From Azolla caroliniana (Eukaryota; Plantae; Polypodiophyta): a DNA stretch of 64,000 nt. The notes below the pieces were generated by a model. It was not told the DNA's origin, made no database searches, and was given only the letters and a program-made list of their open reading frames with translations. Positions 3,232 through 63,816 of the stretch are shown here, in pieces. How positions within the stretch are numbered: position 1 is the stretch's first letter; each line of letters begins with the position of its first letter. The position numbers were made by a program, and so were the translations under genes. Location: positions 19,468,001 to 19,532,000 of the forward strand of contig JBHGNT010000003.1 of assembly GCA_043228905.1 (NCBI GenBank). Reading direction: 5' to 3'.

Positions 3232-3261
3232 TTTCTGCAGCAACCTTGCTCTGATACCAAT

Positions 3262-6456: not shown

Positions 6457-6672
6457 TCGGCTATTTACATACGTAGCCCTCGTGGGGCGCACACTTAGAC
6501 TATTTACAAGTATAGTCACCCGAGTTGGCTATATACCCAATTCAGGTTTCGGCCTCGGTCTATTGGCCTCAGCCGAGTTCGTCATCAACTCGGCTCATGT
6601 TTTCCGACCCTTCGACTGTCGGCTTTCCGAACAGTCAGATCATCCTCCCACTGGAGGGACATATTCCCAACA
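6457..6672 (-). repeat. terminal fragment of a copia-type LTR (host of gypsy A)
   Basis: The minus strand begins TGTTGGGAATATGTCCCTCCAGTGGGA, resembling the other copia LTR starts. It abuts a copia RNase H coding sequence at 6673. Confidence 0.65.
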
Positions 6673-13630: not shown

Positions 13631-15701
13631 ATGGAAGAACATAGAGTGGAAATTGATACAAGTTTGCCTTTCAAATCCGTCAGAGCAGCTGTGCACTTGT
13701 TTGATGATAAGAAAGATGTGAAGAAATTCAAATTACCTGAGGTAAACATCTTGTTTTCTTTTTGTGATTAATATGTTTGAATTAACGTATACCACTTAAG
13801 AAAGACTCAAATTACAAACTACGAGCTTATAACACCTTTTTCTGAATATAAGAAAAAATACTCATGAAAATTTCGTTCTCGTGAAAATAATGTAGAAGCA
13901 TGCTATAAAGGAAACAGAGTTACAAGTACTTAGAAAAGAGCTAGCCAATGCAGAGGAACGATTGAGAAAAGCCGAAAATGCCAAAGAAAAGGCTTTTGCC
14001 GATATGAACGACCCCAAGAAACTTCTAGAAATTTTGATGGATAAAGGAATGATGTTGCTCCCCCAAGAAGGAGAAGTTTCACATGCAAAAGGAAGCACAA
14101 ATGTGACAAAACAAAGCAACCTCCCAAATGATGAGATAAAACATGTTGTGTGGGAGGTTCAACTCAAAGTGGCACGAGAACAACACATGACAGCTGTATC
14201 GCAACTAGAATCTGTGAAAGAAGAGTTACAGAATGTCCGAAGAGAGCTTGGCGATTCAATTATTGAGAGAGAAAATGCTCTTAGACAAGCCGAAGAGGCG
14301 TTTATATCGGCTGAGATAAATGCGAAAAGAGTTGAAGAATTGCATCGCGAGATGTCGGGCACTAAGGAATCCTTAAGATTAGTAAAAATGGCTTGTATTG
14401 AAGCTAATAAAGAAAGAGCTGCAGCTCTTATTGCAGCCCAAAATGGAGGAAATGAATCTCATCATCATCAAAACTCACACAACGTGGCTCTCCAAGAGCT
14501 TACAGATAAGCTTTTTGTTATGAACGAGGAGGTTATCTGCTTAAAACAAGAACTATCAATGATCAAAGTACAAGAGGATATATTGGCAAAGAAATTCTCC
14601 GAAGCACTTTCCGATCTCGAGAATACCAAATCAGAGCTCAAGAAAGCATTGGCAATTGATGCTTTTTTGCATGCAAAGGTGGAATCTATGACAAAAGAAA
14701 TGGTCAACATTGAAGAGAGTGAGATGAGTGCAAAAAGGTGCATTTCGGCACTCAAGACTGAGTTGGTGAGAACAAAGTCTGAGCTAAGCTTAGCCCTCTT
14801 GGCTGAGGCTAGAGCAAACGAAGCTTTTTCAAGCCTTTCATTGGCTTTGAAAAATATTAGAGCTGAAGCCGAAGAGGCAAAGAAGAGTGCAAAAGGGGAA
14901 AAAGAGGAGGCAGAGAAAGCGAGGGCCGATGCTGAAAAAGCTAAAACAATGGCAGCATATGTTGGACTCGAACTCGAGTTTGCCTTTAAAGCAGCCGAGG
15001 AAGCTAAGGAGGCCCAGAAGATGTCCACTAAGAGATATGAAGATCTACCACAGAAAGTGAGCATAACAACAGCTTCCAGTATCAGTGATGATACACAAGG
15101 AGAGGAAAGTATCACCATATCTCAAGAAGAGTATGAGAGATTGAAGAAGGAAACCCAAAATGCCGAAAAGATCGCAAACTTGAGGGTAGCTGCAGTCACA
15201 GCACAAATAGAAGCCATGGAGATTGGTGAGCTAGAATTGCAACAAAAACTTATAACATTAAATGATGAGATCACAACGATGAAGACGAACATGAATGAAG
15301 CTATACAAAGAGCCAAGATGGCAGAAGCAGCAAAATTAGCAGTTGAAGGAGAAATGAGGAAATGGAGAGAGAAACAAGCACTTGCTAGAAAAGAAGTAAA
15401 TCATCAAAAGGAAGAACAATTCGAGAATAGGAGAGATTTCCAAGCTAATAAGTTAGTGGATCGAAGTGAAATCTTGTCACTATCACTACGAAAATCTGGG
15501 GAGTCACTGGCTCACATGTTGAGCATGAAAATGCCCCCATTTCTTGATGATGATGATGATGACTGTGATGATGAAACAAGCACATTATCAGAAATTCCAT
15601 CAGTGCATAGTCGAAAGAAGAAAAAGAAAATCTTACCTTCCTTCAACTTATTCGTGGGAAGGAAAACACAACACTCACCAGTAAGGCTAGTTGAGACATA
15701 G
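13631..15701 (+). CDS. WEB family (WEB1/PMI2-related, DUF827) coiled-coil protein, about 638 aa; join(13631..13741,13896..15701)
   Basis: N-terminal EIDTSLPFKSVRAAVHLF motif, long heptad-rich body, C-terminal KLAVEGEMRKWRE. In-frame GT-AG intron 13742-13895. Probable 5'UTR intron 13224-13610. Confidence 0.9.
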
Positions 15702-18181: not shown

Positions 18182-21100
18182 CTACAATGTCATTAGACCC
18201 CGCCTCCTAAAATACAACATGAAGGAAGCAAATACTAGAAGCCCAGCAATCGCAGTAATTATGAGAACCCACTTGAAGGCTTGTGGTTCTTCAAAGAGTT
18301 CAATTGGAATATTCATTCCAAAAATTCCTGCCACAACTCCAAAAATTGCAACCACAAAAGTCGCCATTGTCAAAATTAGTTCAAACTGGATAAGTTGGTT
18401 TCGAACATTATCCTGTCAACAAGAAGAACAATGGCACCTCAGCTAATCTCGGACTTCACCATAACTAGGAACACTTACATCAACATTAAATTACTGTCAG
18501 ACAAGAAGCGCGTCACTTGGATAATCTCAAAAAATAAAGAGGTGTTTCATAAATGCATTACAAATATACCCTTTTAAATCTTCAATTTCATGAACATGAA
18601 GTACAAAGACACATACCAGCTGTATATTGATCAAGTCCTCTGTATCGTCGATATATTCTTTTAGCTGCAATACAATAGAAAATTGGATTAAATTCACAGA
18701 ACATAAATAATATGCGTATAGGAATCACAATCCACGTACAGAAGTAAGTTTATTGAGGATTGCATCTATGACAACAAAGTAAGCCTCTAAGAGCATCTCC
18801 AACTCTTGAATGTCACTGCCGTCATCAGAAACTCTTGAGCTGCTATGTCGACTGGCTGCCATGCTAAGATTTTTATCCATTTTTCGAGACTCTGGAAGCG
18901 AGCAAACAGGAGAGACGGGAGCTGACATAGAGCCACCACCTCCGAGTCCAGCATAAAATGTACCAGCTTGTTCTTTATAAAAGTAATTCTCCAGTCTCTC
19001 CTTCTTCACAGTCAGATACATTTCAGCCATGTCCCCATCGTCATCCATAAGTTGTTCTATTTCATCTCTAACCTGTGGGATAAATCGAAGTTAGCATATA
19101 AGCTGATATATAATAGTAATTTGTTTAAACACCCAAAATCAAACACCTTTTGAACACGGCGAGTCAAAGCAAGCAGCCTACTCTTCAGTCTTCTTACACG
19201 CTCCAGATTCAATGTGCTGATCTTTGAAGTAAGCTCATCTACGGCTGGATATGCATCCGCCTCCAATTCTGTAACCTATTTGACGAACCATATCAGTTTC
19301 TCTCACAAATATCAGGTTAATCATGCAAAGTAAAATCAATGAATCTTCTGAATCACAGATTTTAGCATATACAAAACATTTACTCATTATATTGCTTTTT
19401 TACTATCTAAGGATAGGTTGTCACTTCTCTTTGGTGAGCAGTTTGGGTGGTTCCTAAAACGAATGATGAAAATTATTTTACCTAGAGTGGCTACCAGTAA
19501 ATATGTATAAAATAGTACTTCCATGAATTCAACTGACTGTAAAGTAGTTTTTTGAAGTTATGTTCTGTTTTTAGCAAAACATAGCTCGATTTTTCTAGAC
19601 CTCTTCAGTTGAAAGCTTTTACTCCTTCATACCCTCAAGTATATGTGGTTTGATTTTGTCAGGTAATTCCTTCTCATATTAAGTCATCAATGTCAAAGAG
19701 ATCTTGCATGCGAAGAAGGAATGAGTGCGATGAAGAAGGAATAGGTGCAACCAAGTGCAAGGAATAGGTGAAGAGATGGACCCCATGTGGACAGTCAAAC
19801 AAACACCTTCAATGATGAAATGCAGAAAGGCAATGAGATACGAAAAATTACTGAGCAAGATCCAACATCAACTGGACCTGGAGCAATGAGATCTGAAAGC
19901 TCAACCTATAGAGATGAACCCAGGATCAGACTTGGTTAGCTGTTCTGAAAGAAATAGGCGCTATGCTACCAACCGGAAATCATATTAATTGGTAATGTTT
20001 CGATCGAAATCCAACTTCTACTCCTAGTGGATCAGATGGATTTTGATTAGTTTCTACAGAGCGAAAGATAGAAAACAGCATCAATACAGAGAAGACGAGA
20101 ATGTGAAATCATATCTGATCTCACAGTATAGCCGTCTCACTAAAATTACATAAACCTACATAAATTAGTGCAGTAATGATAATAGCACCAATAGATACTT
20201 TGTACAGAACTATATCTGTTTAAAACAAATCAAATGCTATTAATCCAGCTAGTAGGCCTGGAACATGAGAAAGTAGTTGTTGATTCCGTTATTGGAGGGC
20301 TCCAAGATTCGGAGCAGCTTTCTTTCTAGATTTCAAGATTCAGAAAAAAATATTTTATTTCCCATGTGGAGGGTTTAAAATATATTGCAATTCGCATGTT
20401 CTGCAGATGTCCTACCCATCCATCTTTTATTGGCATTATTCCCTAAATAATTCTTGGATGAGTGATATGCAGCAACTAAGACATAATAAATGTATGTATG
20501 AATCTGTTTTATGCATATTACACTCATGTACATACATACATGCATATGTATACGGCATATATATATATGGCTCAGATGCATGCGTGTGTATATATGCATC
20601 TATGCATCACTATAATGGCCTCCAATATATATTTATTTATAAGAAGGAGTTGTGTATCTTTGGTGCCTATCTTGTTGTGCTTCTATTTGGCAGTAAACTT
20701 TCACAAAAACTTTATCATATCTTCTAATAGGATAATACACCTTAGTTTAATTTATTGTTTTGTATGCTTCAACAGAATATGAAAAGAAAATTAATACAAC
20801 AAAGCACATTCAACATTTCAAAGTGTATGCTGCAATCAAATACAAAAAGTGAACAAGCATGAAATACACTCAAAAAAGGAATCCTCGTTTGAATCTGAAA
20901 ATTTATTTGTAGATATTCTATATCACATTTCGAGTTTATCTGTGAGCATGGCTTACCTGAGTATCCAGAAAAGTGCACGCTGCTTCCAACGCAACTTCCA
21001 TAGCAAGAAATTCAAATGGCATGTAATCCCCAGATGATCCTCTGGATTCACCTATCATTTGTCGATCATGACCTGATGTCAAAGCATTGTATATCACTAC

Positions 21101-21574
21101 ACTGTTCTCCCTTCTTTCTCCCAACAAAACGTCGACAGGAGCTCCTAATGATGGCCCACCCAAAAATTTGTTCTTCACTGCCAACCTCTTTTGAAGCTCG
21201 GCGACATACTGTAGCACATAGCTGTCAAGAGAATTGAGAAGCAAGACCTCATCTGCTGTTATTATGCACCTGATTTGCTCTAAATTTACAACAATCGCTT
21301 TCTCTCTGCCTAGAATTGTTGATGGATATACAAAGAGAGGATCAAGAAGCCGAAGGTCACGGGCTGGAAGATCGCATCGTCTCATAATCTTTAACTTGTC
21401 AACCTCCATAACTTGTGAATTCCCTTCTTTGTCAATCTTGATCCAGGAACGCACACCCTGCCCTCTCTTTTTCAGACTTGATAGATCCATCCCTTGAAAA
21501 ATTGACCGTGAGGGGCGATTTTGCTCTTGCACTGCAGGACGTGGAGGTAACAAACTTGTTTTGTGGTCTGCCAT
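18182..21574 (-). CDS. MRS2: MRS2/MGT (CorA family) magnesium transporter, MRS2-1-like, about 452 aa; exons 21574-20957, 19275-19147, 19072-18740, 18664-18617, 18412-18182
   Basis: Motifs RDLRLLDPLFVYPSTILGREKAIVVNLEQIRCIITADEV, PFEFLAMEVALE, MDDDGDMAEMYLT and ELEMLLEAYF, plus the GMN motif between two hydrophobic helices. Four GT-AG phase-0 introns give a continuous frame. Confidence 0.95.
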
Positions 21575-23191
21575 TCCTGTGCTTAAACAGTAGGTACAAT
21601 GAATCCTTTTAATGCCTGAACAGAAATGGTGAGCTTGGTTATACCATGTGAGAATTTAATAATATGAGTGTCAAAATAATATATATTATGGGGCCCAATA
21701 CTGAGTTTCTTTAATTTCTTTTAAGTTTATAACTAGTGCTGACAGAAACAAATTGGTCCAATCACCATGGTGACTGTGCTCCCTGATCATTGGCAACATT
21801 GTTTTCATGCATCACAGCAACAGAATCCTATAAACAGTTCACTACTCTCTGAAAATGAACGGATGGCTTTCTAGATGACATACGGAAGAAACCTCAAGCT
21901 TCTGCAGGGTTATCAGAAACAAAGAACTGGTCCTATGACTTTGCAATGATGTCTGAGACCCTTCATTTGACAATTAGTAGCAAAAAACTGAATACAGAAA
22001 GCATTTGCAAGGTTTCAGTACATAGGAACTAAATCATCATTTCTCTAATCTCAGCAGAAATTAAATGAGTGATGGATGGCATGTCACATATGTAGGAAAT
22101 GTGAGCTAGAAAAAACAAGGAACTGAATTTTATGACTTTGCAAATTGCAGCAATTTGCAATACTACAAAACCTACACAAATAGCATACACTGATAAGAAG
22201 AGATAGCATATGATGGAAGGACATGGACTAAACCAGTGTTCCCTAATATCACCAATGGAAATGATGACCTTCTTGGATGACAGAGAGAGGGATTGCAAGG
22301 CCTTCTGAATAAATCAAAATATTCTTAGAGCATCGTCTTTGGCCTTCTGGATAAGTCAATGATTAGCAAACGGCGAAGGCAATCATATACATGGGAATGA
22401 ATTGCACAAACAAAAAACCCATGAACTAAAATGTGTTCTCTAAGCTCAGCAAATGAGCCTTCTGGATTAGATAAAGAGAAGACCAACCTTAGCAAGATTA
22501 ATCATTTTTCTCTGAGAATGAACTATTGCCAATTGTAGGACAGAAAGACCAGGACACACAACAATCTTTACAAAAGGCAAGAAAGAGTTGACTTTGCAGA
22601 AAATCTTGCAATCTACAAGGTCACTTCTGGATGATCTAATGCCATTTAGAGTCTAGACTACACAAGTGGACATAGTGTGCACTGCGATCTTCACGCAAAG
22701 CAGGAAAGTATATGACTCTACAGCAATTCACAGCCTTACTTACCAATCTACACGGCATATATGAAGCAGAGCAAAAACTAATGCAAGACCCATAAGTACT
22801 TGTACGTCTGTGTTCCTATTTTGCTCCGAGGTATGTTTCCTTCCTTCTATATTCAAAAATGTATTTCCTTCAATTAGAGGCATTTCCTGATTACAATGTG
22901 AGAACCATTTCCTTTTTCGATTGCAAATCGTATGTATTCTTCAATATTTGAAGATCAAACATTGTGAGGGCTGTTTTCGTCTATATTCTCAGATCTTTTG
23001 CCCTCTACAGTCAGGAGCTTGTTCCAGACTATATTCTAAATTCCGTTTCCCTCTGTATTAACTCAGAACCATTTCCTTCTAAATCCCGTTTCCGAGAGCC
23101 GTTTCTTCATCAGCCCGTTTCCTGCTTACATTCTGATGCAGCTTACAGAAGAATAAGACGAGATAAAGAGTAAGCGGCAGAGCAACCATAC

Positions 23192-37998: not shown

Positions 37999-38427
37999 CG
38001 GAATTCAGGTCTATTTCCCATATCGACAGTGCTCACAGAAGTCCGTCTTCGGTCGGAGTTTCGGGATGTAGCCGACCGACATTAATTGATCAAGTCCGGC
38101 TTGAGACATATAGTCGAGTTGGCAATGCCATAAGTTTGGGTTGGTCTTCTCGGCTACGTTCACGACCCCGTCTGGATTGATCGTCATCATTGGGTACAAG
38201 TACAAGTTATTGTACTGGTACTTGTCTTCGGTTAGCATGCTGATGGAGACCAAATTCCTTTTCAGATCAGGTACGTGCCGAACTCGATGTAGGGTTATTG
38301 TGTTGCCATTTGGCAATCAGATGGGAATTTCTCTTGTTCCTGCGATTCAGCACTCCTGCCCGTTGCCTAATCGGACTGTGCCATTGGCGTCGGCTGAATA
38401 GTTCGAGAACCATTGGAATGTGGCACC
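37999..38427 (-). mobile_element. copia C continuation (protease C-terminal part to pre-integrase zinc domain)
   Basis: VRHVPDLKRNLVSI, LWHCQL, FCEHCRYGK. Confidence 0.8.
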
Positions 38428-41400
38428 TGTTACCCGTTCCTTTGGGTGAACACCTTCGATAGACCTGCAGCTATCGGTATCCAAGGGCGTGGTATGTGAA
38501 GGCTCGTAACAGAGGCATCGTGAGGGAGAAAACGATCAGAGATAAAACACTAGCGAGATCTTGTTAAGCGTGGGCGGCACTGAAATCATAAGTATGAGCC
38601 AAAGCACAGATACATGGAGCAAAATGGGCACAAATCAGATATATTACTGCAACACCAAAAGGATTACAGAACACGGCCTACGGCCGATGCCCTTACAGGA
38701 TTATCTAGTTATGATCGACTAAGCTAGTGCTTCCGCTTATATTTTTCTCTCTCTCTCTGAGGTGCTCGACCTTGTTTAAATAACATTTCCCCTAATACAT
38801 AGCCCGTGATACTCGGACTCGGCGCTCGTTGGCGTTCTTTCCTACTCGGTTACACTACCGTCGTTTGCTAATTTCCTAATTTTTACATTTCTGTCCTCTG
38901 GACAACACCTGGCACGCCCGTGGGACAGGACCTTGTCCGTCGGACCCACGACTTACAAAATACTAACAACATTACAAAAATTGCCTTTTAGGCGTGATCC
39001 TCCTTTCGTTCCTCTTCTAAGATGTCGAGGATGTTTTCGGGGTCCGGGGTGGTGGCAGGGTGGTCTGGTTGGACTGTCGGTGCGGGGGGTTGACTTTGGT
39101 CTGGGGGTGTCATATCCTCTCGGGCGTCCGTCTCAGGTGCGGCTGATTCTTTTGGTGGTGGTGTGGGTTCGAGGGCGATGTCCTCTACTTTGACTGGATC
39201 TGGTACCATGTGGGCGTCCTCGAGAGGTCTGTTGGCCGGGGCGAGTTCCTCCTGTGCCGTGTCCGTGATCTCCTCACTGGGAGGTTCTTCCTTCTGCTCT
39301 GTGGCTGTTGGAGGGCTGGTCGGGATGGCTGCGAGTCGTTCTCATTCGAAGGCTTCTACTTCCAGGCGAAACAACATCTGATCGTCATTGAAGTCCTCCA
39401 GTATTTGCTCGATTGCCGCGGTGTGAGATTTTGCCAAGGACTGGTAATCCTCGGTTAAATCTACACGGAGGTTTTGTATGCTGGCTTCATCCATTTTGTA
39501 AAAGCCGCGGCCCTCCTTTCGTCGGTTCTCGGCGTCGGCGCGTAAAATATGCAATTCGGCAGCTTGGGCTGCCCATTCTTCTCCTGCGCGACTTAATGTT
39601 TCCTCGACCTTTTTGGTGAGGTGTTGGCGCTGTTTCTCGATCAGTATTCTGATGCGTGTCTCATCAAAGTCGGGCTGTGCTCGGACTGCTACCAATTCCT
39701 CTTTTAAGCCGTTGACCTCGACCTGAAGCTTCTTTGCGAGTAGTTCATAGGTGGCTTGAGTGTTCTTTGCGTCCGCGGTTACGAGCTGGATAGACTGCTC
39801 GTAATGCTTGGTGAGCTCTTCGTTAGCTTTCTCCCATTCTTTTTGACACACGGCCTGGACTTGTTCCCGTTCAACGATTCTCTCTTCTTGTAGGGCGAAG
39901 TAGGAATAAGATAATTTGTCTTTTTGCTCCGAAAGTAGCTTGCATTTGATGAAAAACTCGTCAGCCATTTCTTTAAGGTTCGTATGCTGACTCTGTAGCT
40001 CGGCATTCTCCGCGATCATTCTCTCCTCCCGTTGGCGATTTCTTTCCTCCTGCCGGTGGTTCCAGTCTTTCGCATTGTCGAGCGCGGCTTGTAGGTCTAG
40101 GACCTCCTTCTCTTTCTCTGCCATTGTGGCCGCGTATTCCTCCAGCTTGCTTTTGAGTTCTGCTTCTTTGCCCGCGGCTTGCGCTTGTACCCGGCCCAGT
40201 GCTTCTGTCTGCTCGTGTATCCTTTGGTCGGCCTGGGCTCTAATCTCGACCATCTGTTTGGAAGCTTCTTCTTTTAAGCGAGCCATGGCCTCTTGATGCC
40301 GTTGTTTGTGTCTCTCGGTCCACCATTGTTCTTCTTTAAGCTCCGCTCGGTAATCCCGGAGCGGGGGTTCTGTCAGGGTTGCGACCTCCTTGGTTGGACG
40401 AGGGGGTGGTATCTCGGTCTTCTCCATGGGCGTGTCCGCCTCGGTTGTTGTGTAGGCATCGGCCATTTGTAACGAGTCCGTTAGTGTGCTGGCCTGGATC
40501 GTCAGGATTGAATCCGTGACGGTGCTTCCATCTATCATTGTTATGCTTGGAGGGGCTGGGAGGGCCTCGGTGGTCGTGGCCGGAAGGCTCAAGAGTTGTT
40601 GTTCTGGCCGGTTTTGCTCCCAGGCTGCCAGTTTTTGTTTCGCAGCGTGCCATAATTCCGTAGCCACCTTAGCCTGTTTTTGGGCTGTTTTTATCTTTCG
40701 GGCCATGTCTTTGGCTGCCTGCGTAGTGCGATCTAGGTCCCTATATGCCTCGATAAGGGCCGTGTTCAACTCGGGGACCTCCATGAGGAGAGCGGCCTGT
40801 TTTGCCTGCTTCTTCCTCCCTATTTTTTGTAAAGCCCTGTCGTCTTGGGGCTCAATTTCACCTAATAGCGCGCGTTGAATCATTTTTGTTTCGGCGTGCT
40901 CTTCCGCCATTCGAGCGGCTGCCGCGACTTGGGCTCTGGCGAGGAAGTTGACCAGCTCGAATGTCGTACCGAGGCGTAGGAGCGCACTAAATTCGTAAGC
41001 CTCCGCGGGGAGGTGGCCGAGACCTCGTGGTGCGAGGGGGCGCCGTAACGGCGGCTGGTGGTTACCTTCAACGAAGTTCGCTGTGCACCCACAACTGTAA
41101 CCGGGTGTGCCAAATTGTGTTACCCGTTCCTTTGGGTGAACACCTTCGATAGACCTGCGGCTATCGGTATCCAAGGGCGTGGTACGTGAAGGCTCGTAAT
41201 AGAGGCGTCGTGAGGGAGAAAACGATCAGAGAGAAAACACCAGCGAGATCTTGTTAAGCGTGGGCGGCGCTAAAATCATAAGTATGAGCCAAAGCATAGA
41301 TACATGGAGCAAAATGGGCACAAATCCGATATATTACTGCAACACCAAAAGGATTACAGAACACGGCCTATGGCCGGTGCCCTTACAAGATTATCTAGTT

Positions 41401-41597
41401 ACGATCGACTAAGCTAGTGCTTCCGCCTATATTTTTCTCTCTCTCTCTGAGGTGCTCGACCTTGTTTAAATAACGTTTCCCCTAATACACAGCCCGTGAT
41501 ACTCGGACTCGGCGCTCGTTGGCGTTCTTTCCTACTCGGTTACACTACCGCCGTTTGCTAATTTCCTAATTTTTACATTTCTATCCTCTGGACAACA
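38428..41597 (-). mobile_element. non-autonomous LTR element F (3170 bp) with a single coiled-coil ORF and PBS-like motifs at both internal ends
   Basis: 480-bp direct repeats 38428-38907 and 41118-41597 with TG...CA ends. Degenerate 5-bp TSD GCACC/ACACT, whose removal restores the host copia protease motif WLLDSGATF. Strand inferred from the ORF and a TATA-like motif in the LTR. Confidence 0.9.
38988..41174 (-). CDS. long coiled-coil protein of unknown function carried by element F; one internal TGA at 39342-39344, then an in-frame Pro/Thr/Asp-rich tail
   Basis: The 610-codon ORF 39342-41174 and ORF 38988-39209 share a frame. A/E/K/Q-rich heptads. No gag, PR, RT or INT motifs. The start is uncertain (first ATG near 40910). 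Confidence 0.7.
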
Positions 41598-42298
41598 ACA
41601 CTGGAATCCAGTAACCATGTGTGTGCATCCTGTGCATTGTAGAGAACTTCTCCGATCACTGAATCCTCTAAGGAGAGAATTTCTCCTGATCAAGTGTCAA
41701 CAACATTGATTTGGTTGCCTGTAGGAGAGTGGTCCGAATCAGGTTGTCCTCGATTCCACTCGGATCGCCGACCACTCTCTTTTCTCTAGATTGATCAGTA
41801 GTCGGAAATATTGTGGCCAACTTTTCTGTAGTGTGTGCAAAATTCGCCTGATCAACCCGTTCTTGACTTTGACCGTTGTCAGTTTCCCCTTGATTTTGAT
41901 CGGTTGGTATTCCGACCGGTTCTCTCAGCTTGTTCTCTCATTCGACTTTGTCGATTGAACAACTCGGTCGAGTGATGGGCTTCTGCCGATTCATCGATGG
42001 TAAGTCCCATCGATTTTCGCCGAATTTCCTCGGTGAGGACTTGGCTGATCGTCTCATCCAGATTTAGGATTGGTCGACTATTGGCGTATGTCGTACAAAA
42101 TACCTCCCAACTCGCTGGCAAGCTCGATAGGAGGGCAAGGGCTTTCACTTATTCTTCGAAGTTGATCCCTTGTGAGGAGAGTTTTGACAACACCCGACTG
42201 AAGGTGTTGATGTGGGAGGTAGCCAGATTGGTCTCTCTCATCTTCATGTTGAACAATTGTTTGATCAGAATCAGTTTTGAAGATGAGGAGTTCTTCTC
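41598..42298 (-). mobile_element. copia C gag and protease start
   Basis: KALALLSSLPASWEVF, EKNSSSSKLILIKQLFNMKM, WLLDS. Confidence 0.82.
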
Positions 42299-51116: not shown

Positions 51117-51930
51117 TCTTCTTCTAACTAACTAAGGACATCAAATCTGTTCGCTAGATCTGGGCTATTAGTACTATTAGGACTATCAGATATCCCTACT
51201 GAAATAGGCTCGGGTTTAGTACAATTAGAACTAGCGACTATTTGGTTTACCTGTCTTCTTGGCCTATGGGGGCAATTTATTGCAATATGTCCTGGTCCAC
51301 CGTAGTAAAGACATAATCGATTTGTACGGCGTCGCTGCTTTTCTTCTTCGGAGAATGGCCCTCGACGACGTTGTCGTGAAGAAAACCGTCCCTTAGCGCA
51401 ATCGGTGCATAGCGCTCGTGAACCAGCTCTTCACGCGTGCGCGCCCTTTAATGTATATAATAGGGAATTAGGTACATAGGCATATCCGGGGGTAGCTAGA
51501 TTCGGTAGGTAGGAAGTAAATGAGGGAGACGGCTCCCTTCCTGAAGCTATAAAAGAGAGGGAGACGCGGGGGAGAAGGGGATCACGCGTTGAGGAGGACG
51601 AAGTGTTGTCGAACCGTAACCGAACGCTTCTCCTCTGTTCATTCTCGATCGCTCTTCTCTGCAGGATTTCGGGAGGCTCGCGCTGCTTCGAGGAACGCCC
51701 GTGTGCTTCCGGCAGCACCTCCATCCTATCCCGTTTCGTCCACAGACGAACAGGCATCGACATCTGTTCGCCGGCACGTAACCGGTCGTCTCTCTCTTTC
51801 TCTTTCCCCTCCTATCACCTGCTCTTCGGTTCAAGACCCCGGTGGTCCCGCCTCGTTTCTCCACGCACGCGCGTAGCAACGCGACATATTTGGTGAACCC
51901 GACGAGAACAAGGCGGCAGAGGAGCAGAAG

Positions 51931-54020
51931 ATGAGGGGGTCGGATCTTGCAGAGGCCATGGCTTCGGCCGTGGACCGGAATGTGAGCGCGCGCGACGGCA
52001 CCGGCGCCCTTGACAGGGCTATTGAGGCGATCGTCGGTACGATCGGCCGGTTCAGTGGAAAGGATGCCACGAGTTATTTGGCGTCCTACCAGGCGGAGAT
52101 GTTGATGAGGGATATTCCGGAAGAGAGGCGTCTTGCCAGATTCCCTCGAGTGGCGATGCCGGGCATCCATGCGGAGGTGCTCGAGGTCCGGGCGGAGAGC
52201 CGGACCTGGGAGGAGTTTGAAGGACGGCTCCTGGAGAAATACGGGCTGGATGACGCGCTTCGACTTTCGAAGCGGGGCTTCATGGAGTGGTGGAGTCCCC
52301 CAACAAAGGAAGAAATGCATCGGTACTCCTCTGGGAGTTTGAGGAACGCTTTGCCCGCCTTTCGGCGCTTGATCGGACCGTTCTGGACACAAGTCGTGTC
52401 CTACTGTTTGTCAAATCGGTTGACGCACGGGATCGGGAGCAAGTGGGCTCCTTACTGGAAACCGAAGACGGGCTGACGGCCGACTGGGCCGCGGTAAAAA
52501 GAGTCTGCGGCCGTTTTGACAAAAGGTGGGAGTGGGCTGATACAGGGGCGACCAGGACGGGTCCTGTCGCAGCGAGGAAGCTCGAACCGATACCCCAGGT
52601 GCGACGGGAAGAGACCCGGGAGTGGCTCGAAACCGGTTCGGCTTCGACCGGCGTGGTCAGAGGCTCGTCCGGGGGGATAGCTTTGGAGGAGTTGACACGG
52701 GCGGTAAAGGATCTCTAGATCGCCCAGGCTCGGAGGGAAGGTGGCGAACAGGCTCGTGACCGACGGCCTCCGACAGGAAATAGGTGCATGTGGTGCGACG
52801 AGGTCGGCCACATCCGGAAAGACTGCAGGGACTTTGCGGAGGCTTTGAGAAGCCGGGTAGTGTACCTGTGGGAAGATCGGGTGCACGCCAGCGATACCCG
52901 GAGGGCGCTGAACCGAAACGATGGGCGAGGAGGAATGAAAAGGCTGATGGAAGAGGCGGTGGCCGGTATTCGGGTCGGTGGCAGCGAGGCCGGGAAGGGG
53001 AGCAAAGCCGGGTTCTGGCCGACGGTGCTGGAAGGCCTCGCCGGTGCCCGACTAAAAAAAGACGAGGCAGACCGCGCGGAGAAGCGGGTCCAGGAGGTAA
53101 CCGGGTGGAGTGACCCGATCAAAGAAAAGACGGGTTTCGTCGAAGCAGCTTGCTAGAACTACGAGGCTCTGGTTGAAGACAAACGGGTAGGTAAAACCGG
53201 AGGGGCCGGACCCTCACAGAGATACGAAACCCGATTCAGGCCGAAACAGAACGAGGCCGGTGAGACCAGTGGCCGGGATAACCACAAGAAGTGCGGATAC
53301 CGGTTGGGCACAGATATCGAAAGGACCACGGACCTACGAAAGGTCCTGGAAGAACGAATCCTCGACAACAAGGTGGAACTGTCTTTGCGGGAGGTGCTCG
53401 GAATCGCCAAGAAGGAGTTCCACGACTCCATCGTAGACTTGGTGAAGAGGAAGAGGCTGTCGACGGAGATAGAACCGGAAAGGCCGGTTGAGGTGCGGGC
53501 GATGCACATGGAGGACATGGCGATGGAAGACGACTGGGCGGAGAGCCACTACTCGAGGCCACACTAGGCCCAAGCGACCACGGAAACCCCGATGAAGATT
53601 GGAGATGTTTAGGAACCGGTGGTGGCGCTGGTGGACCACGGTTCGGAAATAAACCTGATGTCCATGGACTTCTACAAGAAGGGGAAATGGCCGATCAACA
53701 CCAAGCACGGGTGGAAGATACGGGCGGCGACTCGCGCCACCGAGGAACTACATGGGGCCTGCCCAAACGTGCGAGTCAAGATCGGCGACGTCGAGATAGA
53801 TCAACACTTCTTTGTGCAGGAGACGTCCTCACACCCGGTCATACTGGGAGAACCGTACATTACGGCAACGCGGATGGAGACCAAGGTGCTGGACAACGGG
53901 TCGGCTTACGCGAGGGTCAAGAGTCAGGACGGGCGTCATTCCGTCTAGTTCCTGACGGTGCGACCAAACCACGAGCGAAACCGCGAGTCCCTCGGTGGCG
54001 AGAACCGAGAGGATTTTTAG
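51931..54020 (+). pseudogene. element I gag-protease ORF (stops and frameshifts)
   Basis: MRGSDLAEAM..., WCDEVGHIRKDC knuckle, ALVDHGSEINLM. Ends GAG GAT TTT TAG. Confidence 0.85.
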
Positions 54021-57000
54021 AGAGGGCTGTCAAGGCGTGGGGCCGCGACAGTCCGGACACTCCGGGAAAACCCCACAAATGTACGATAGAGGCGAAACCG
54101 AAGAAACCTTGTATCATAAGTAGGAAGTTTTGTTTCTCCGACAACGGAGGGTGTACGATAGTCGGTGTCGTTGGCCGAGAAAAGACAAGGGCGGAAGAGC
54201 GACTTCGGGTGTGCGGAGTTCTCGGGCCCAGTGAGGAAATCAACGGAGCCGTGGAGGCGGTCTCCTTCGACGATACCTTGGGAGTACTGCGAGAGGTGGT
54301 CGGAGAGGGCCTTAAAGAGGACCGGACGATACCGGTTTGTTCAGAAGAGATGTATGAAGTCATCGCGGACTTCAGTCGAGGGCTCGAGTCAGATCGGACG
54401 GCCTGGGTTAACACGAAGTACAAGACTGTGGACCGGAAGGTAAGGCCAGTCGCGGCACCCTTACCGAAGGGCAACGAGTTGCGAATCAAGGGGGTCGCGT
54501 CGGACCCCAATTTACGAGATCCAGCCTGCATAGGACACGCCTTCACCGATAGAACGCTATGGGAGCTCAAAATCGGTGGGGGCGGGTTCCTACTGCCGAC
54601 GGAAGAAGACCGGTTTCGGAGAATGCTCGGAAGGCACGGGAAAGCCTTCGCATTCTCACCGGGAGAGATCGGGTTCGTAGACCCGACAGTCGTGAAGCCG
54701 ATGGTGATATTCACGGTACCGCATGTGCCGTGGAATCTCAAACCAATTCCGGTACCGAGAGCTCACATCTCGGAGCTGATGGAGTTGTTGAGGCAGAAAG
54801 TCGATATGGGCATCCTCGAACCGTCGAGTGCCCCGTAGTCGAACCGGTGGTTTACTATACCGAAGAAGAATGGGACGTTGCGCTTCATTCAAGACCTGCA
54901 ACCGGTCAACAGAGTGACCATTCGGAACGCAGGAATCGGACCAACGATAAACGAGTTCGCAGAGGCCTTCGCCAGAAGGTCGATCTACTCGGTCGGTGAT
55001 CTGTACTCGAGGTACGATCAGTTCCAACAAGCAGAGACATTACGACGATGCGGACTCCACTCGGCCTAGTGCGGATGTGTACCCTGCCAGAAGGAGGGAA
55101 GAACTCGGTGGCCCACATGGTGAATGCGATGAACAAGGTGCTAAGGGATTGTATCCCGGACATCACCATGCCATTCTTGGACGACATCCCGATCAAGGGA
55201 TGTCTGGTGGAGGAAAAGGACGAAACGATCGGACCAGACGGATGTCGGAAATTCGTGGCGACACACATTGACGACTGCAAGAGGGTGCTGCAGAGGCTAG
55301 AGGACGCGAGGCTCACCTTCTCCGGGGAGAAATCGGCCTTCGGGCAATCAGAGATCATGGTCGTCGGACATCTATGCGGACCGTATGGCCGGAAACCGTC
55401 TCCGGCTAAGGTGGAAGCCATCTCCGCAATGAAGCCCGACTATAACTCGGTCACGGAGGTACGGAGGTTCTTGGGAGCATGCACGTTCTACCACATATGG
55501 ATCCCGCATTACGCCCATGTTGCCGAGCCACTATACAGGTTGCTGAAAAAGGGGCGAAAATTTGAGTGGCGAGACGAGCATACGGAGTCGGTCTGAAAGA
55601 TGAAGGAGGCTCTTGCTGCAGCTCCGATACTCCGGAAGGCTGTCTACGAGAAAGGCACTCCCGTCTACATAACGGTAGATACGAGTCCGACCGGGATCGG
55701 ATGGGTTGTCAACCAAGAAGATGAGGACGGCATTCGGTTCCCAATCCGGTTCGGTGCGAAGGTCCTCAGCGAGCGACAGCGAGGATATGCCCAGGTTAAA
55801 CGCGAACTCTGGGGTATCGTTTCGGCGGTGAAGGCTGATAAAGACTATCTGATCGGGACAGAGGTGATTATCGAGACGGACTGCCAGCCGATTCTCGGCA
55901 TGGTTTCTGGATGCGCAAACCCGGACCTGGCAATGCTCAGGTGGATAGCGTACATCAAGTCCCTGGATCCGGAAATACAACACATTTCCAGGAAAGACAA
56001 TGCCATGGCCGACATGCTTTCAAGGGCACGATTCGACGACGAGGGCGGCATGGTTTCGGAGGACGAGGAAGTCGGCGTGGACTTCTTCGAGTCGGCTTAC
56101 GTAACAACCGAGGGGGGGAGCAGTCCGGTGCTTAACGATTTTAACGAGAGCAAGTACGATGGGGAGTGGCTGCAGATTGAAGGATTCTTAAGGACGATGA
56201 CGCCGAACGCGTCATGGACAAAGGACGAGGCCAACCGGATCCGGAAGAAAGCGTACCGATTCTTTCTCCAGGACGAATACTTGTGGAAGCACCCGAAGAA
56301 GAGAAACGGCATCCCGCTCCGAGTAGTGGCGATGAAGGAGGAACAAGAGGAGTTACTGAAGGCCTACCACGACAGCCCCTGGGCTGGACACCGTGGAACG
56401 TGGGCCACGTTCGAGAAACTAAAGGGGAAGTACTGGTGGCCGGGACTGTACCGGGACGTGCATCGGTTCGTGACGACTTGTGAGAGCTGCCAGATACACT
56501 CCATAGTCCGACATCGGGACGAGCTTCACCCTACATACCCTCCGGCCATCCACTTCAAATGGATGGTAGATTTGGTGACGATGCCGATGGGCGTAGGGCA
56601 GATGCGATATCTGGTGCTAGCCCGGGAGGACCTGACGAACCAAGTGGAAGGCCGAGCCCTGCAGAACAAAACGACCGCGGCCGTGTGTCGGTTCCTGATT
56701 GAGGACGTGATATGTCGGTACGGGTGCGTCGGGAAGATCGTGCCTGACTGCGGGGAGTTGGATGCCGAAGAGGCCGATGAGCTGTTCGACCGGTTAGGGG
56801 TCAAGCTCTCGCTCACCACAACGTACAATCCGGAGGCGAACGGGAAGGTGGAGCGCGGACACGGACCGATCGTCAAAGCATTAGTCTGGGCATGCGGAGG
56901 CCAGGTCGGGAACAGGACAACACACAGTTCGGTAACCGGGTTCATGCCGTCAGAGCTCATGTTCGGACAGAAGCCGATCATGCCGATGGAACGGACGATC

Positions 57001-57551
57001 TCCTCTTGGGCGACAGTGGACTGGAGAGATGAGATGAGCCGGGAAGAACTGCTAGCGGTGCGTATACGGCAGCTCGAGCGGAGGCCAGAGGACGTGGAAC
57101 GAGCGGCAGAGAGACTTCGGACGGTGAGGATGGGAACAAAGCCCGGTTTGACCGAACGCACCGGCTCCGACCAAAGAAAACCGAGGAAGGCGACTGGGTG
57201 CTAGTCTACGACAGCAGCCTCGACAACCAGCACCGGGCAACACAGAAGTTTGCAAAGCGGTGGATTGGGCCTTACGTGGTAACGAGCACCAACGACAATG
57301 GGACGTATCACCTGGCGGAACTCGACGGTACGAGGATGGCGATACCAGTAGCAGGGAAGCGGATCAAAGCGTTCAAGAAGCGCCACGACGGCGAACCGGA
57401 TCTAAGAGGCCTGGACAGCGACGACGAACAGTCCGAAACGGAGGACGAACCGATGGACGAAGAACCGGAACTCGGACCAGTTTTCTCCAACCAGAGCACA
57501 ATTTTGGTGCATACCGGTGGATGCGCGGTTAGGTGGGGGTGGATGTCGTGA
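54011..57551 (+). pseudogene. element I pol (RT, RNase H, integrase) in the -1 frame
   Basis: PFLDDIPIKG, TVDTSPTGIG, HDSPWAGHRG...CESCQ, YNPEANGKVERG, WIGPYVV. Confidence 0.88.
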
Positions 57552-59018
57552 AGAAAACCGTCCCTTAGCGCAATCGGTGCATAGCGCGCGTGAACCGGCT
57601 CTTCACGCGTGCGCGCCCTTTAATGTATATAATAGGGAATTAGGTACATAGGCATATCCGGGGGTAGCTAGATTCGGTAGGTAGGAAGTAAATGAGGGAG
57701 ACGAATCCCTTCCTAAAGCTATAAAAGAGAGGGAGACGCGGGGGAGAAGGGGATCACGCGTTGAGGAGGATGAAGTGCTGTCGAACCGTAACCGAACGCT
57801 TCTCCTCTGTTCATTCTCGATCGCTCTTCTCTGCAGGATTTCGGGAGGCTCGCGCAGCTTCGAGGAACGCCCGTGTGCTTCCGGTAGCACCTCCATCCTA
57901 TCCCCTTTCGTGCGCAGAAGAAACGGCATCGGCATCTGTTCGCCGGCCTGTTCGGTTGTAACCGCTCGCGTGCTCTGTTGTTTTGTGTCATTTGTTAATA
58001 TACAAACATTCGTGTCTCTCTGTCTTTGTGTCCATTCGTGTTTTCTGCGTTGACGGGCCATGCCCCTGTGTTTCTTTGCTCATACGTAACCGGTCGTCTC
58101 TCTCTTTCTCTTTCCCCTCCTATCACCTGCTCTTCGGTTCAAGACCCCGGTGGTCCCGCCTCGTTTCTCCACACACGCGCGTAGCAACGCGACAATGTGT
58201 AGTGTCAATCTCCATCGGAGTCGAAGTATTCGCTGGAGGCGCATTATATGACTCCCTCGGAAAAGGTCTTGCTACCACTGAGGCGTAGGTGGGCTCTGAT
58301 CTTGCCCTCGGCATCTGTAGCTGTCGTTCCGAACGTCGCTCAAAGAGGCGGTTGTCACATCTCACCGCGCGACTGATTGCTTCTGTTAAGGACTTTGGCT
58401 CTTCGGTGAAGGTCAAGAGTAAATCCTTGACGTCGTTGTGTAAACCATAACGGAATTGCTCCATCAATGCTCCATCATCCCAAGGGATATCAGCGGCGAG
58501 TAGGCGAAAATCTGCAGCGTATGCAGAGGCTGGACGGTCACCTTGGCGTAATCGCCGAATTTTGTTGATTGCGGTCCTGATGCTGTCAGTATCTTCGAAA
58601 CATGCTTTAAACTCACCTAGAAACTCTTCAAAATTATTGAGTAACGGAGATTCCTTTTCTAATAGTGGAGCGAACCATGCCAACGCTGAGCCACTTAACC
58701 AAGTGCCTACTAAACCCATTCGTGATGCATCGGTGGGATACCGGGAGGGATGCATTTGAATAACTAATCGTACCTGGTTAAGGAACCCTCTAAATTGTGA
58801 TCGCGTTCCATCGAACTTCGTGGGAAGGCCAATCTTGGGTTCTTTATGAATCCCTCGTGTTCCGGGCCCTTGTTGTTGCATCGCTACGATGGTTGCTTCG
58901 AGTTGTTGCACGCGTAACGCAAGTTCCCCATGCTTGTTGGGATTACGGTCCCTCCGGATGGGATGGTTAGATGTCCGGGAATCGGGAATGAAGACCCGAA
59001 TGAGGAGTACCCGGTATC

Positions 59019-59225
59019 GGAACCGGATGATGAAGACCCGGTTTCGGATCTGGATGATGAAGACCCTGGCTACGGAGCCGGATGACGAAGACCCGGTTTC
59101 GGAGCCGGATGATGAAGACCCGGTTTCGGAGCCGGATGATGAAGACCCCGGCTACGGAGCCGGATGACGAAGACCCGGTTTCGGAGCCGGATGATGAAGA
59201 CCCCGGCTACGGAGCCGGATGACGA
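59019..59225 (+). repeat. 27/28-bp tandem array in the copia E LTR U3
   Basis: Units GGAGCCGGATGAYGAAGACCC(C)GG(TTTC/CTAC). Confidence 0.9.
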
Positions 59226-59742
59226 ATGTACCCGGAGAGAGATCCGGATGCGGGGACATATTTGTGAATATGTTTGCCAAGGGCCCTCTAGGCTATATTT
59301 GTAAATAGCCCGAAAGTCATATGTGTATAAATATGACTTAGGGCAAACAGTTTTGTAGTTGTTGCTCATTTTTCCTGTTTTCCACTTAGAGGGAGCGAAG
59401 TGAGAGCAGCCGAGAGAGAGAGAGTGAGAGAGAGAGAGAAAGGAAGAGGTCGACGCCTCTGTGTAATACCGCCGCCTGTGGCGAGGACAGCGAGCTCAAG
59501 GTCGTCGCCTTGCAGCTCGTCATTGTACATTCCCTGCGTATAGTGATAGTTGGAGTCTTGCACTCCCGTGGTTTTTCACGTCTAGGGTTTTCCACGCTAA
59601 ACCCTGTGCATTCGAGTCTCTCTCTGTGTTCTTGATTTACTTCTACATTGATTCGTGTTTCCTCGGTTGTGGCCGAGAGGCGAAGGTTTTGAAAGCGTCG
59701 ATTTCCCAACAATCTGGTATCAGAGCGACTGCAGTGCAGAAA

Positions 59743-62700
59743 ATGGAAGGCGACAACAGCGGGCAGCCGGGGATAATGGTGCTGAATGCGCAGAACTACG
59801 CCGACTGGAAGATAAAGATGGAGGATCTGCTCATCGTTCGGGACCTGTATGAACCGATCGACAGGTCGGAAATACCCAAGGGGGTACTTGAGACGGAATG
59901 GAGGCTTCTGAACCGGAAAGCCGTTGCAACCATTCGGCAATACGTCGACGTGAGCGTTCTACAAGATGTGGCGAACGACACCAACGCATATGAGATGTGG
60001 CAGAAGCTGTCGGGCCTCTACGAGAGGAAGAATGCGTTGAACCGGACCTCCCTGATGAGGAAGATAGTGAACCTCAAGTACCGGGACGGCGAGAGTATGG
60101 TGGAACACGTAAGCACGTTCATGGGATTCGTGAACCAGCTTGCGGCGATCAAGTTCCCGTTGGAGGATGCAATGCAAGCCATCATGCTGATGTGTACATT
60201 GCCGGAAAGCTGGGAGAACTTGGTGGTGACTCTCAGCACCTCCTGCACCGAAGATAACTTGTCCTTACAAACGGTAAAGACAAGCATTTTGAACTAAGAA
60301 GCGCGTCGGAGAGATAAAGAACCGGCCTCCGATCCGAAGATGCTGCTTACCGAATCGGATCGGGGAAGACAACGGAACCGGAGTCCGCAAAGACGGGAGA
60401 AGTCGGGGACCCGGTCGCAGTCAAGAGGAAGGCCCACGTGCTTCCACTGTGGGAAGTCGGGGCACTTCCGAAAGAATTGTCGGCATTACCGAAAAGACAA
60501 CGGAGCCGACGACACCGATTTGAAGAAGTCTTCGGAACGGAACGGTGCTTACCGGGGAGCCACGGACCGGAATGGTTCGGATCGGCGAGGGCAGGACCGG
60601 AAAGGAACGACGGCACTCGCGGCAAGTGAAGAGGAGATCATGCTCATCACCGAAGAAGGTGAACTAAACATTGCCGGCGATGAGACTACCTGGGTGGTCG
60701 ATTCCGGAGCGTCGTTCCACCTGACCCCGGAAAGAAGATACTTCTCATCCTATACAGCCGGTGAGCATGGCTGCGTTCGGATGGGAAATGAAGGTACGTG
60801 CCGGATTGCCGGCATAGGAGACGTGTGGCTGACAACCTCGACCGGATGCAAAATGTTGCTGAAGGATGTCCGACACGTTCCGGAGGTTCGATTGAACCTG
60901 ATTTCGGCCGGGAGGCTAGACGATGAAGGCTACACAGGTAGCATCCGGAACTGCGTAATGAAGTTCAGCAAGGGGAGCCTGATAGTGGCTCGGGCCCGGA
61001 AAGTCAACACACTGTACCTTATGAATGCCTGGTTGTGTCCGGATGAGTTGAACGTGGCAGCCGACACTGCCGGTGAGCTGTGGCACAAGAGACTGTGCCA
61101 CATGAGTGAGAAGGGGATGAAGAGGCTTGCAGAAGACAACCTTATTCCAGTGAAGCATGTGCACCTGGAGAAGTGCACCGATTGCCTGGCCGGTAAGAAG
61201 AACCGAACCTCCTTCCACTCAAGGCCACCGACGAGACGTAGCGCACCATTGGAGTTGGTGCACACTGACGTGTGTCAAGTAGAAACGAAGTCACATGGCG
61301 GAGCCCAGTACTTCGTGACATTCATTGATGACCACAGCCGGAAGCTGTGGACGGCACCGTTGAAGAAAAAGGACCAAGTGTTGTGCGTCTTCAAAGAACT
61401 CCACGCGAGAGTGGAAAGGGAATCCGGCAAGAAGCTGAAAGCGATACGAGCGGATAACGGAGGGGAATACCGGGGGCAGTTCAAGGAGTACTGTCGCTCG
61501 AAGGGAATCCGGCTCGAGTTTACTGTGCCGAAGACGCCGGAACTGAACGGGCTGGCCGAGAGGATGAACCGAACCATAATGGAGAGGGTCCGGAGTATGC
61601 TGGCGCATGCGAAATTACCCAAGGGGTTTTGGGCTGAGGCAATGTCGACGGCGACATACGTGATAAACAGATCACCCTCAGTACCTTTGGACGGAGACAC
61701 ACCGCAGAGAGTGTGGACCGGCAGGGAAGTATCCTACCGGCATCTGAAGGTGTTCGGGTGTCTCGCATATGTGCATGTGGCAAAGGACCGGAGAGGAAAG
61801 CTAGATCCAAAGACCCGGCCATGCATATTCCTCGGTTACGGCGATGACGAGTTCGGCTACCGAGTATGGGACCTGGTCGACAAAAAGATATTCCGGAGTC
61901 GTGATATCATCTTCATGGAGGACAAGACACTCGCCGACTAGGAGTCGGAGAAGAAGATGAAGAGCTCCAAGTCGACCGGTGAGGATCAACTCTACGAGGA
62001 GCAGTCCCGACCGGCAAGGGACCGGTTAGCAGTCGAGGATCCGGCCGAAGACGGTGAAGAAACAGAACCGGCCGAGGAAGATGAAATTGATACCGGAACC
62101 GGCCCCGATCCCGAAATGGATTCGGATGAAGAGGAAACGGAGGAGCCGGTTACCGAAGCTCCGGAACGGAGATATCCTCTAAGAGAGAGAAGGGCCCCCC
62201 GGAGATTTCCGGAACCAGAGCACGTGCTGCTAACCGACGAGGGGGAGACGGAGAGTTTTGAAGAAGCAAAGCTTGACACCCATAGACGCAGGTGGTTAAG
62301 TGCAATGCAGGAGGAGATGGATTCCCTGCATGAGAACCACACATATGAACTTGTGGAGTTGCCGAAAGGAAAGCGGGCACTTCGAAACAAGTGGGTGTTC
62401 AAGCTGAAACCGGGAGATGCCGGAAACCCCCCGAGATACAAAGCCAGGATCGTGGTGAAGGGGTTCCAGCAGAAGAAGGGCGTCGACTTCGACGAGATAT
62501 TTGCCCCAGTAGTGAAGATGACCTCCATCCGGACGGTGTTGAGCATAGCGGCAAGCATGGACCTCGAGGTAGAACAGATGGACGTGAAGACGACATTCCT
62601 TCACGGTGACCTCGAAGAAGAGATCTACATGCAGCAACCGGAAGGATTCGAGAAGAAAGGGAAGGAGCACCTGGTATGCCGGTTGAAGAAGAGCCTTTAC

Positions 62701-63816
62701 GGACTGAAGCAGGCTCCCCGGCAATGGTACCAGAAGTTCGACTCTTTCAGGACCGACGAAGGGTACCACAAAACGTAGTCCGATCACTGCGTGTTTGTGA
62801 AGAAGTTCGAAGGAGGAGACTTTCTAATACTCCTCCTGTACGTGGACGACATGTTGATCGTCGGACGGGACCAGGTCAAGATACGGATGCTGAAGAAAGT
62901 GCTTCACCGAACCTTCTCAATGAAGGACCTGGGTCCGGCGAGGCAAATACTAGGGATGCACATCATCCGGGACCGGAAGAAGAAGCAGTTGTGGTTGTCA
63001 CAGGAGAAGTACGTGACAAAGGTGCTTCACCGGTTCAACATGTCGGAAGCAAGACCGGTCGGGTCAACCCTCCTGGCAAACTGCAAGTTGTCCAGCAAGC
63101 AAAGTCCCAAGACAAAGGCTGAGAAGGAGGACATGATGAAAGTACCATATGCATCTGCCGTTGGAAGCTTGATGTACGCAATGGTGTGTACAAGACCGGA
63201 CATAGGATATGCAGTCGGAGTGGTGAGCCGGTACATGAGCAATCCCGGCAAAGAGCACTGGAACGCGGCCAAGTGGATACTCCGATACCTGAAGGGCACG
63301 GCAAACGTGTGCCTCCGATTCGGCTCCGGTAAGCCCGAACTCGACGGCTTTACCGATTCGGACATGTCGGCTGATGCAGATACCAGCCGGTCCACATCAG
63401 GGTATGTGATGACGTATGCAGGGGGAGCTGTTTCGTGGCAGTCGAGGTTGCAGAAGACGGTTGCGTTGTCAACCACGGAGGCGGAGTACATGGCGGCTGT
63501 TGAAGCCGGCAAGGAAATAATATGGATGAAGGACTTCATTAGAGAGCTCGGTATCCGGCAGGAAGAGTACCGACTCTACTGCGACAGTCAGAGTGCCATC
63601 CACCTTGCGAAGAACGCAGCCTATCACTCACGGACGAAGCACATCCAGCGAAGATATCACTGGATCCGGGAAAGGATAGAAGACCAGGAGTTCGTGCTGA
63701 TGAAGATCCACACGGACGAGAACGGGTCAGATATGCTGACCAAAGTGCTCACACCCGACAAGCTGGAAGCATGCCGGAAGAGGGTCGGACTGGAAAGACA
63801 TCCCATGCCGAAGTGA
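59743..63816 (+). pseudogene. copia E gag-pol, single frame with three premature stops
   Basis: ORF pieces ending at 60297, 61941, 62778 and 63816 share one frame. All copia domains are present. Confidence 0.93.

Follow-up and report, generated by a model that had tools for sequence, protein, structure and literature searches.

A split copy of a tRNA 3' end in place of the polypurine tract of a plant Ty3/gypsy lineage, a candidate site for plus-strand priming by a second tRNA

How does an LTR retrotransposon that lacks a polypurine tract (PPT) begin its plus strand? The plus strand of LTR retrotransposons and retroviruses is generally taken to be primed by the PPT. As far as the available text of two descriptions goes (PMC10886601, PMC6317226), the canonical element combines a tRNA annealed at the primer binding site (PBS) with an RNase H-resistant PPT. 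The question is raised by an element at 38428-41597 of the window, the whole 64,000-nt stretch of DNA analysed here, for which the original prediction described two LTRs, tRNA primer-site motifs facing inward at both, and no PPT.

The LTRs lie at 38428-38907 and 41118-41597. As first described, both are 480 bp long; they have TG...CA ends and are identical at 461 of 480 positions (17 transitions, 2 transversions, K2P 0.041). The element is inserted in a copia pol gene (Pol_BBD, gag-pre-integrase; 38011-38316, minus strand) and is flanked by the 5-mers GCACC (38423-38427) and ACACT (41598-41602), which are identical at three of five positions, both mismatches being transitions. Empty-site contigs, in which the copia flanks are joined by a single such 5-mer and the element is absent, were also found, and a decayed 5-bp target-site duplication (TSD) is therefore a fair reading of these flanks; the TSD length given in the original prediction stands, with the qualification that the copies are imperfect. 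The inward-facing motifs are present where they had been placed. The plus strand reads TGGCACGCCCGTGGGAC at 38910, 2 nt from the LTR, and the minus strand reads TGGCACACCCGG from 41112, 5 nt from the LTR, and these two sites are the only matches to a motif of this type in the 64-kb window.

Much of the surrounding sequence is repetitive. Positions 1-12000 and 30000-64000 are densely packed with nested copia, gypsy and LINE-type RT fragments, among them two large, related copia copies in inverted orientation (1-3800 and 59176-62973, 94%). A chromovirus-like gypsy element at 51372-57947 (plus strand) has 404-bp LTRs (96%), matching 5-bp flanks and a G-rich PPT at its own LTR junction, and no TGG-type PBS was seen past its 5' LTR; from these features it may be a self-priming, Tcn1-like element. 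Host genes at 13896-15701 and 20936-21655 correspond to the WEB/WEMBL family, with nearest named relatives in gymnosperms (30-34%), and to an exon of an MRS2-like magnesium transporter.

Relatives of the element were collected through its minus-strand ORF. A protein search yielded 11 relatives, the longest of 1011 aa, and five of these were aligned and used to search metagenome contigs, giving 92 related stretches, of which 80 were analysed. Each of these loci is a contig collapsed from short reads; their accession numbers lie close together, they may stem from one campaign, and they are not to be read as single independent insertions. Searches of viral contigs with the extra ORF, pol and the 22-nt junction found no relatives. 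The nearest named relatives of pol are from Riccia (54%) and Adiantum (49%).

The direction of transcription is settled by two of these loci. Locus L034 carries, all on the ORF strand, a 475-bp 5' LTR, TGGCACGCCCGGT 5 nt past that LTR, a 1797-aa frame, the extra ORF and the start of a 3' LTR. A domain search of the 1797-aa frame gave GAG, RT, RH and INT in gypsy order; a protease motif was seen by eye, and the RNase H motifs look intact by eye and have strong domain scores. The order is repeated in L010, where pol is broken. Because gag-pol lies on the ORF strand directly past the 41112-type motif in both loci, the minus strand of the window is the sense strand, so that 41112-41100 is an ordinary PBS and 38949-38908 is the PPT position. 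A layout with the plus strand as sense and an antisense extra ORF at the 5' end was rejected, since gag-pol was found on the minus strand. The original prediction had placed a tRNA-end copy at the PPT position in either transcription direction; only the reading on the ORF strand survives, and with it a single unusual site, at 38949-38908.

Read in the sense direction, the 5' LTR (41118-41597) is followed by the 5-nt spacer CAATT (41113-41117), which is the same in all five related loci that show this junction, and by a 13-nt PBS of the tRNA-Arg type (41100-41112), which is TGGCACACCCGGT in the window copy and TGGCACGCCCGGT in four of five relatives. A leader remnant with the start of the gag-pol frame (41015-41099) matches, at 87-95%, the sequence directly past the PBS in L034, L030 and L010. 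A small hairpin of the GCTGTG...CACAGC type occurs past the PBS in relatives (L034:1945-1965) and at 41070-41099 on the minus strand of the window. Relative to L010, the window copy lacks 6970 nt, and the break falls at a 9-nt microhomology (41006-41014), with loose contig ends at 41006 and 41014. The deletion took gag-pol and the start of the extra ORF, so that about 7 kb were lost and 3.2 kb are left. Judged from these alignments, the window element belongs to a plant Ty3/gypsy family as a non-autonomous copy produced by deletion.

The extra ORF, which lies 3' of pol in the relatives, is represented in the window by its 3' two-thirds (38988-41014, minus strand); the first third is absent, an in-frame stop is found at 39342-39344, and what is left is rich in coiled coil. 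In relatives it encodes a conserved protein of about 1000 aa (P0004, P0005, P0081; L034:7872-11099) whose N-terminal domain is globular and which also contains a long coiled coil. A Pfam search of the extra ORF gave no family above the cut-off, and the N-terminal part, the one missing in the window, gave a weak lead to Transposase_32 / ATHILA ORF-1 (scores 0.84-0.86).

The sequence at the PPT position resembles the 3' end of a tRNA split in two. The 42 nt before the 3' LTR (38428-38907) read, in sense, GTGGGTCCGA CGGACAAGGTCCT GTCCCAC GGGCGTGCCA GG. In our own numbering they comprise a copy of tRNA positions 49-58 (38940-38949, GTGGGTCCGA), a 13-nt insertion after A58 with the hairpin GGAC-NNN-GTCC (38927-38939), a copy of positions 59-76 without base 66, ending in CCA (38910-38926), and a 2-nt spacer, GG (38908-38909; GG in 17 of 19 rows, TG in 2). 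The hairpin of the insertion has 4 bp and a variable loop, and one of its pairs is compensatory (A-U in 12 and G-C in 5 of 18 rows); as the rows are related sequences, this covariation amounts to few events at one pair. The opposite strand of 38910-38926 reads as a second PBS. A purine tract was sought in the 25 nt before the 3' LTR, where the longest purine run is 3 in 18 of 19 rows and 4 in one; in the window copy it is 3. The original prediction was thus right that the PPT is absent, and right in placing the motif 2 nt before the LTR on the ORF strand, a spacing that the relatives keep.

The site is a property of the family. Of the 80 loci, 18 reach beyond the point where the extra ORF is estimated to end, and 17 of these have it, autonomous gag-pol partners, which carry both motifs, among them; the exception, L072, continues into unrelated sequence with neither site nor LTR. 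An internally deleted locus outside the 18, L063, has a shortened version. L030 and L034 are identical at the site and were counted once, giving 17 non-redundant copies, over which the mean pairwise identity is 0.95 in the last 17 nt, 0.77 in the insertion and 0.85 in the T-arm part. In the same copies it is 0.31-0.38 between 55 and 130 nt upstream and 0.43-0.59 over LTR positions 10-60. The 3' LTR is complete in four loci, whose flanks all differ, and the window copy brings the number of distinct flanks to five. No relative with a normal PPT was found, so that the refutation which the original prediction had set for itself on this point did not come about. While a PBS is recopied from the tRNA during reverse transcription, a site at the PPT position is not, and its conservation therefore points to selection. 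These comparisons indicate that in this gypsy lineage a split copy of a tRNA 3' end has indeed replaced the PPT, and that this arrangement is conserved and family-wide.

Contig depth suggests a still wider distribution. Summed depth peaks over 38905-38940 in four public runs labelled as three organisms; in run X1 it is 298,000 at the peak, 4,700 at 38995 and 54,000 in the LTR. Many unrelated loose ends occur on both sides of the peak (38935, 38904), which, with the peak itself, indicates that other families share the site. Sequences at these loose ends show a tRNA-like end with a different hairpin, a canonical T loop and the different LTR starts of other families.

To what extent does the site match a tRNA? 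The reference was a bacterial tRNA-Arg gene, L091, a stand-in that may not be the host's isoacceptor; it was picked via a degenerate pattern, built on the motif, that combines a T arm with this acceptor end. The pattern had 24 matches in prokaryote genomes, of which ARAGORN called 20 as tRNA-Arg, one as tRNA-Asp and three as nothing, and one viral match, a tRNA-Arg(TCT). The window site agrees with L091 at 26 of 27 positions, the next best sequence on either strand of the window, in the same layout, reaching 18; since the reference was chosen with a motif-based pattern, this match is partly circular and speaks for the uniqueness of the site, not for the identity of the tRNA. All 17 copies match the stand-in at 23-26 of the 27 positions. 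The likeness to a tRNA 3' end that had been predicted is in this way extended by the 5' side of the T arm and the hairpin after A58. The L034 PBS forms a 13-bp duplex with the same stand-in. There are no tRNA genes in the 64-kb window; relaxed ARAGORN runs on the window and the related loci returned only noise, and an Rfam search over the site gave nothing meaningful (three matches, E 0.2-2.9).

Over the 17 copies there are 28 differences from the stand-in. A single shared substitution, 55 T>C, accounts for 13 of them (13 of 17 copies) and would still let the antisense strand pair with the tRNA through G-U. The remainder comprise five that are wobble-compatible, nine that break pairs (six at CpG, three elsewhere) and one at A58. 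The evidence from wobble pairs rests largely on one inherited change. A canonical T loop (G38943A) is carried by L065, which has GTGGGTTCGA in place of GTGGGTCCGA, and accounts for 16%, 31%, 20% and 2% of contig depth in the four runs.

Position, 2-nt spacing and the loss of the PPT lead us to infer that the site defines the start of the plus strand. Our preferred reading is that plus-strand synthesis starts from a second host tRNA-Arg, annealed to this site on minus-strand cDNA, a step that we regard, on balance, as somewhat favoured by the sequence evidence. Put more broadly, a whole plant gypsy lineage without a PPT probably starts both of its DNA strands from host tRNA, by way of a split tRNA-binding site with a hairpin at modified A58. 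The minus strand would be primed as usual by tRNA-Arg at the 13-nt PBS. RNase H would then clear the RNA, and the minus-strand DNA would expose about 27 nt complementary to tRNA positions 49-76. Two helices would form with the tRNA, the 13-nt hairpin being looped out beside A58 and tRNA base 66 bulged. RT would extend the CCA end of the tRNA through GG into U3, and removal of the tRNA by RNase H would leave a 2-nt end for integrase to trim.

In many tRNAs A58 is modified and does not pair, and pairing with and copying of a tRNA normally stop there. With RNA parameters, the stand-in tRNA is predicted to bind the antisense site at about -56 to -63 kcal/mol and the PBS at -33 kcal/mol; the longer pairing would offset the weaker RNA-DNA duplex. 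Against this reading stands the susceptibility of a tRNA-DNA duplex to RNase H, which could cleave the tRNA ahead of priming. In the literature searched, mostly at the level of titles and abstracts and with few subscription papers, we found no description of tRNA priming of the plus strand or of a tRNA copy replacing the PPT; within that literature the element type is known and the proposed dual-tRNA route was not found described.

Could the plus-strand primer be the element's own RNA, a tRNA-like segment that survives RNase H and is cut just past CCA? Such a primer would have the same position and 2-nt spacing and would make a second tRNA unnecessary, and the sense RNA is able to fold into both a T-stem-like helix and the hairpin, with 93% of cells paired. 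Nevertheless, the sense RNA of the site is no more stable than shuffled sequences (z -0.50, 0.25, -1.24, 0.25). The T-loop letters TTCGA/TCCGA are kept even though the insertion destroys the shape of the loop, which is better explained by pairing with a tRNA than by a fold, and the insertion breaks the copy at A58; all three observations favour a tRNA primer over the element's RNA, which moreover offers no evident reason to keep CCA. We consider this alternative unlikely, though worth weighing.

Two further pairings of the site region were noted. One is between GGACAA, in the 5' arm of the hairpin, and its complement TTGTCC at the LTR start (window 38900-38939); the antisense DNA folds on this pairing (z -2.15), which may reflect the origin of the insertion or an alternative switch. 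The other can form between TTACAG, past the PBS, and TTGTAA, which precedes the 3' site; a three-way junction through these segments, which are invariant, was predicted in two of four cofolds.

The site could also pair with the PBS, either circularising the RNA, as CYC5/CYC3 do in Ty1, or self-priming the minus strand after a cut behind CCA, the plus strand being primed in some other way. In L034, L017 and L032 the PBS and the 3' site are perfect complements over 11 nt, and the predicted helix in the sense RNA is 11 bp (-16 to -20 kcal/mol), so that the site may have a role that involves no tRNA at all, a point that counts against priming by a second tRNA. Pairing between the 5' and 3' ends is described as required in Ty1 and Ty3 in the text available to us of PMC4974528. 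Complementarity is automatic, however, if the PBS and the site both match one tRNA, and the absence of base 66 cuts the pairing with the PBS from 13 to 11 bp. Pairing of this kind leaves 17 further tRNA-like positions (49-65), unpaired with the PBS, and the fixed 2-nt distance to the LTR unexplained, and a plus-strand primer would still be missing. On these grounds we think it quite unlikely to be the main function of the site.

A third possibility is that an antisense transcript from the 3' LTR is packaged as well and that the site is its true PBS, each strand then being started by a tRNA on its own RNA template. Seen on the opposite strand, the junction does have the look of a textbook PBS at a distance of 2 nt from the LTR; the antisense strand of the LTR contains TATATT at two places, and a tRNA on RNA is the normal start for RT and safe from RNase H. 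Sense and antisense RNAs would pair with each other, however, and it is the sense LTR that has the more orderly promoter layout, with TATTTAAA at 126 followed by a GA repeat; we therefore hold this to be distinctly improbable. That the site is a one-off inversion, a duplication or a chance likeness without function is suggested by little more than the window copy being itself a broken derivative, and is hardly credible, being largely refuted by 17 of 18 loci, autonomous ones included, with identity far above that of the flanks, five different 3' insertion flanks and three organisms by run label.

If plus-strand priming by a second tRNA is correct, LTR retroelements would have a second way of making their plus-strand DNA. 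That a lineage can be successful and reach high copy number with no PPT shows that the plus-strand start can be rewired, and the lineage offers a natural system for how RT and RNase H pick and remove the plus-strand primer. There is also a consequence for annotation. Elements of this kind will be lost from pipelines in which a PPT is obligatory. Where the strand is assigned from the best PBS they will be annotated in reverse, since the 3' site makes a more convincing PBS than the true one does.

Where does this lineage stand among known retrotransposons? On the present sequence evidence we have filed it as Athila-like, but as a distinct, non-chromovirus lineage, whose host is probably a seed-free plant. 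A domain search of L034 found a single RNase H, with no aRH domain and no chromodomain, which excludes Tat/Ogre and the chromoviruses; the Tat/Ogre affiliation of the original prediction was accordingly rejected. The 5-bp TSD together with the Arg-type PBS excludes Phygy and Selgy. In a quick tree of 48 RT-RH rows without labelled REXdb references, the family groups with Riccia and unnamed sequences apart from the angiosperm aRH-less clade, the fork between them being open.

Among the Tat clades, TatIII, Ogre and Retand share with this family the tRNA-Arg PBS, the 5-bp TSD and an extra ORF, whereas aRH is given for 92-100% of them in the portion of PMC6317226 consulted and none was found in L034. 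Athila, as far as it is described in the accessible text of PMC6317226 and PMC2844528, is similar in having no aRH, no chromodomain, a 5-bp TSD, a complete length of about 10 kb, an extra ORF 3' of pol and, in FIDEL (PMC2844528), a PBS set off from the LTR by several bases. It differs in its PBS, which is of the tRNA-Asp, or Asn or Ala, type (PMC6317226) and not the Arg type, in LTRs of >1.2 kb compared with about 480 bp here, and in a ttgggg PPT core that is absent here. Phygy and Selgy, in the same partial account (PMC6317226), have a 4-bp TSD, a tRNA-Trp or -Ala PBS and no extra ORF, in contrast to the 5-bp TSD, Arg-type PBS and 1000-aa extra ORF of the present family. Chromoviruses, including the self-priming Tcn1, have a C-terminal chromodomain, which is absent in L034.

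Other elements use tRNA-related sequence in different ways. Ty1, with CYC5/CYC3, and Ty3, with its bipartite PBS, resemble this family in having tRNA-related sequence near the 3' end, contacts with the T arm and possible 5'-3' pairing, but in the sections of PMC4974528 available their 3' segments are complementary to the tRNA on RNA and serve minus-strand priming, whereas the 3' segment here is in the tRNA sense and lies at the place of the PPT. Helenus TRIMs (TRIMp3) are likewise LTR elements with tRNA-derived sequence; in the available part of PMC10886601 that sequence lies inside the LTR as a Pol III promoter, the PBS and PPT are kept and no priming role is reported, while the tRNA copy described here is internal and the PPT is absent. 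With the canonical LTR retrotransposon the family shares two LTRs with TG...CA ends, a 5-bp TSD, a tRNA-type PBS and, in relatives, the order GAG-PR-RT-RH-INT; it departs from it in carrying a split copy of a tRNA 3' end where the PPT would be.
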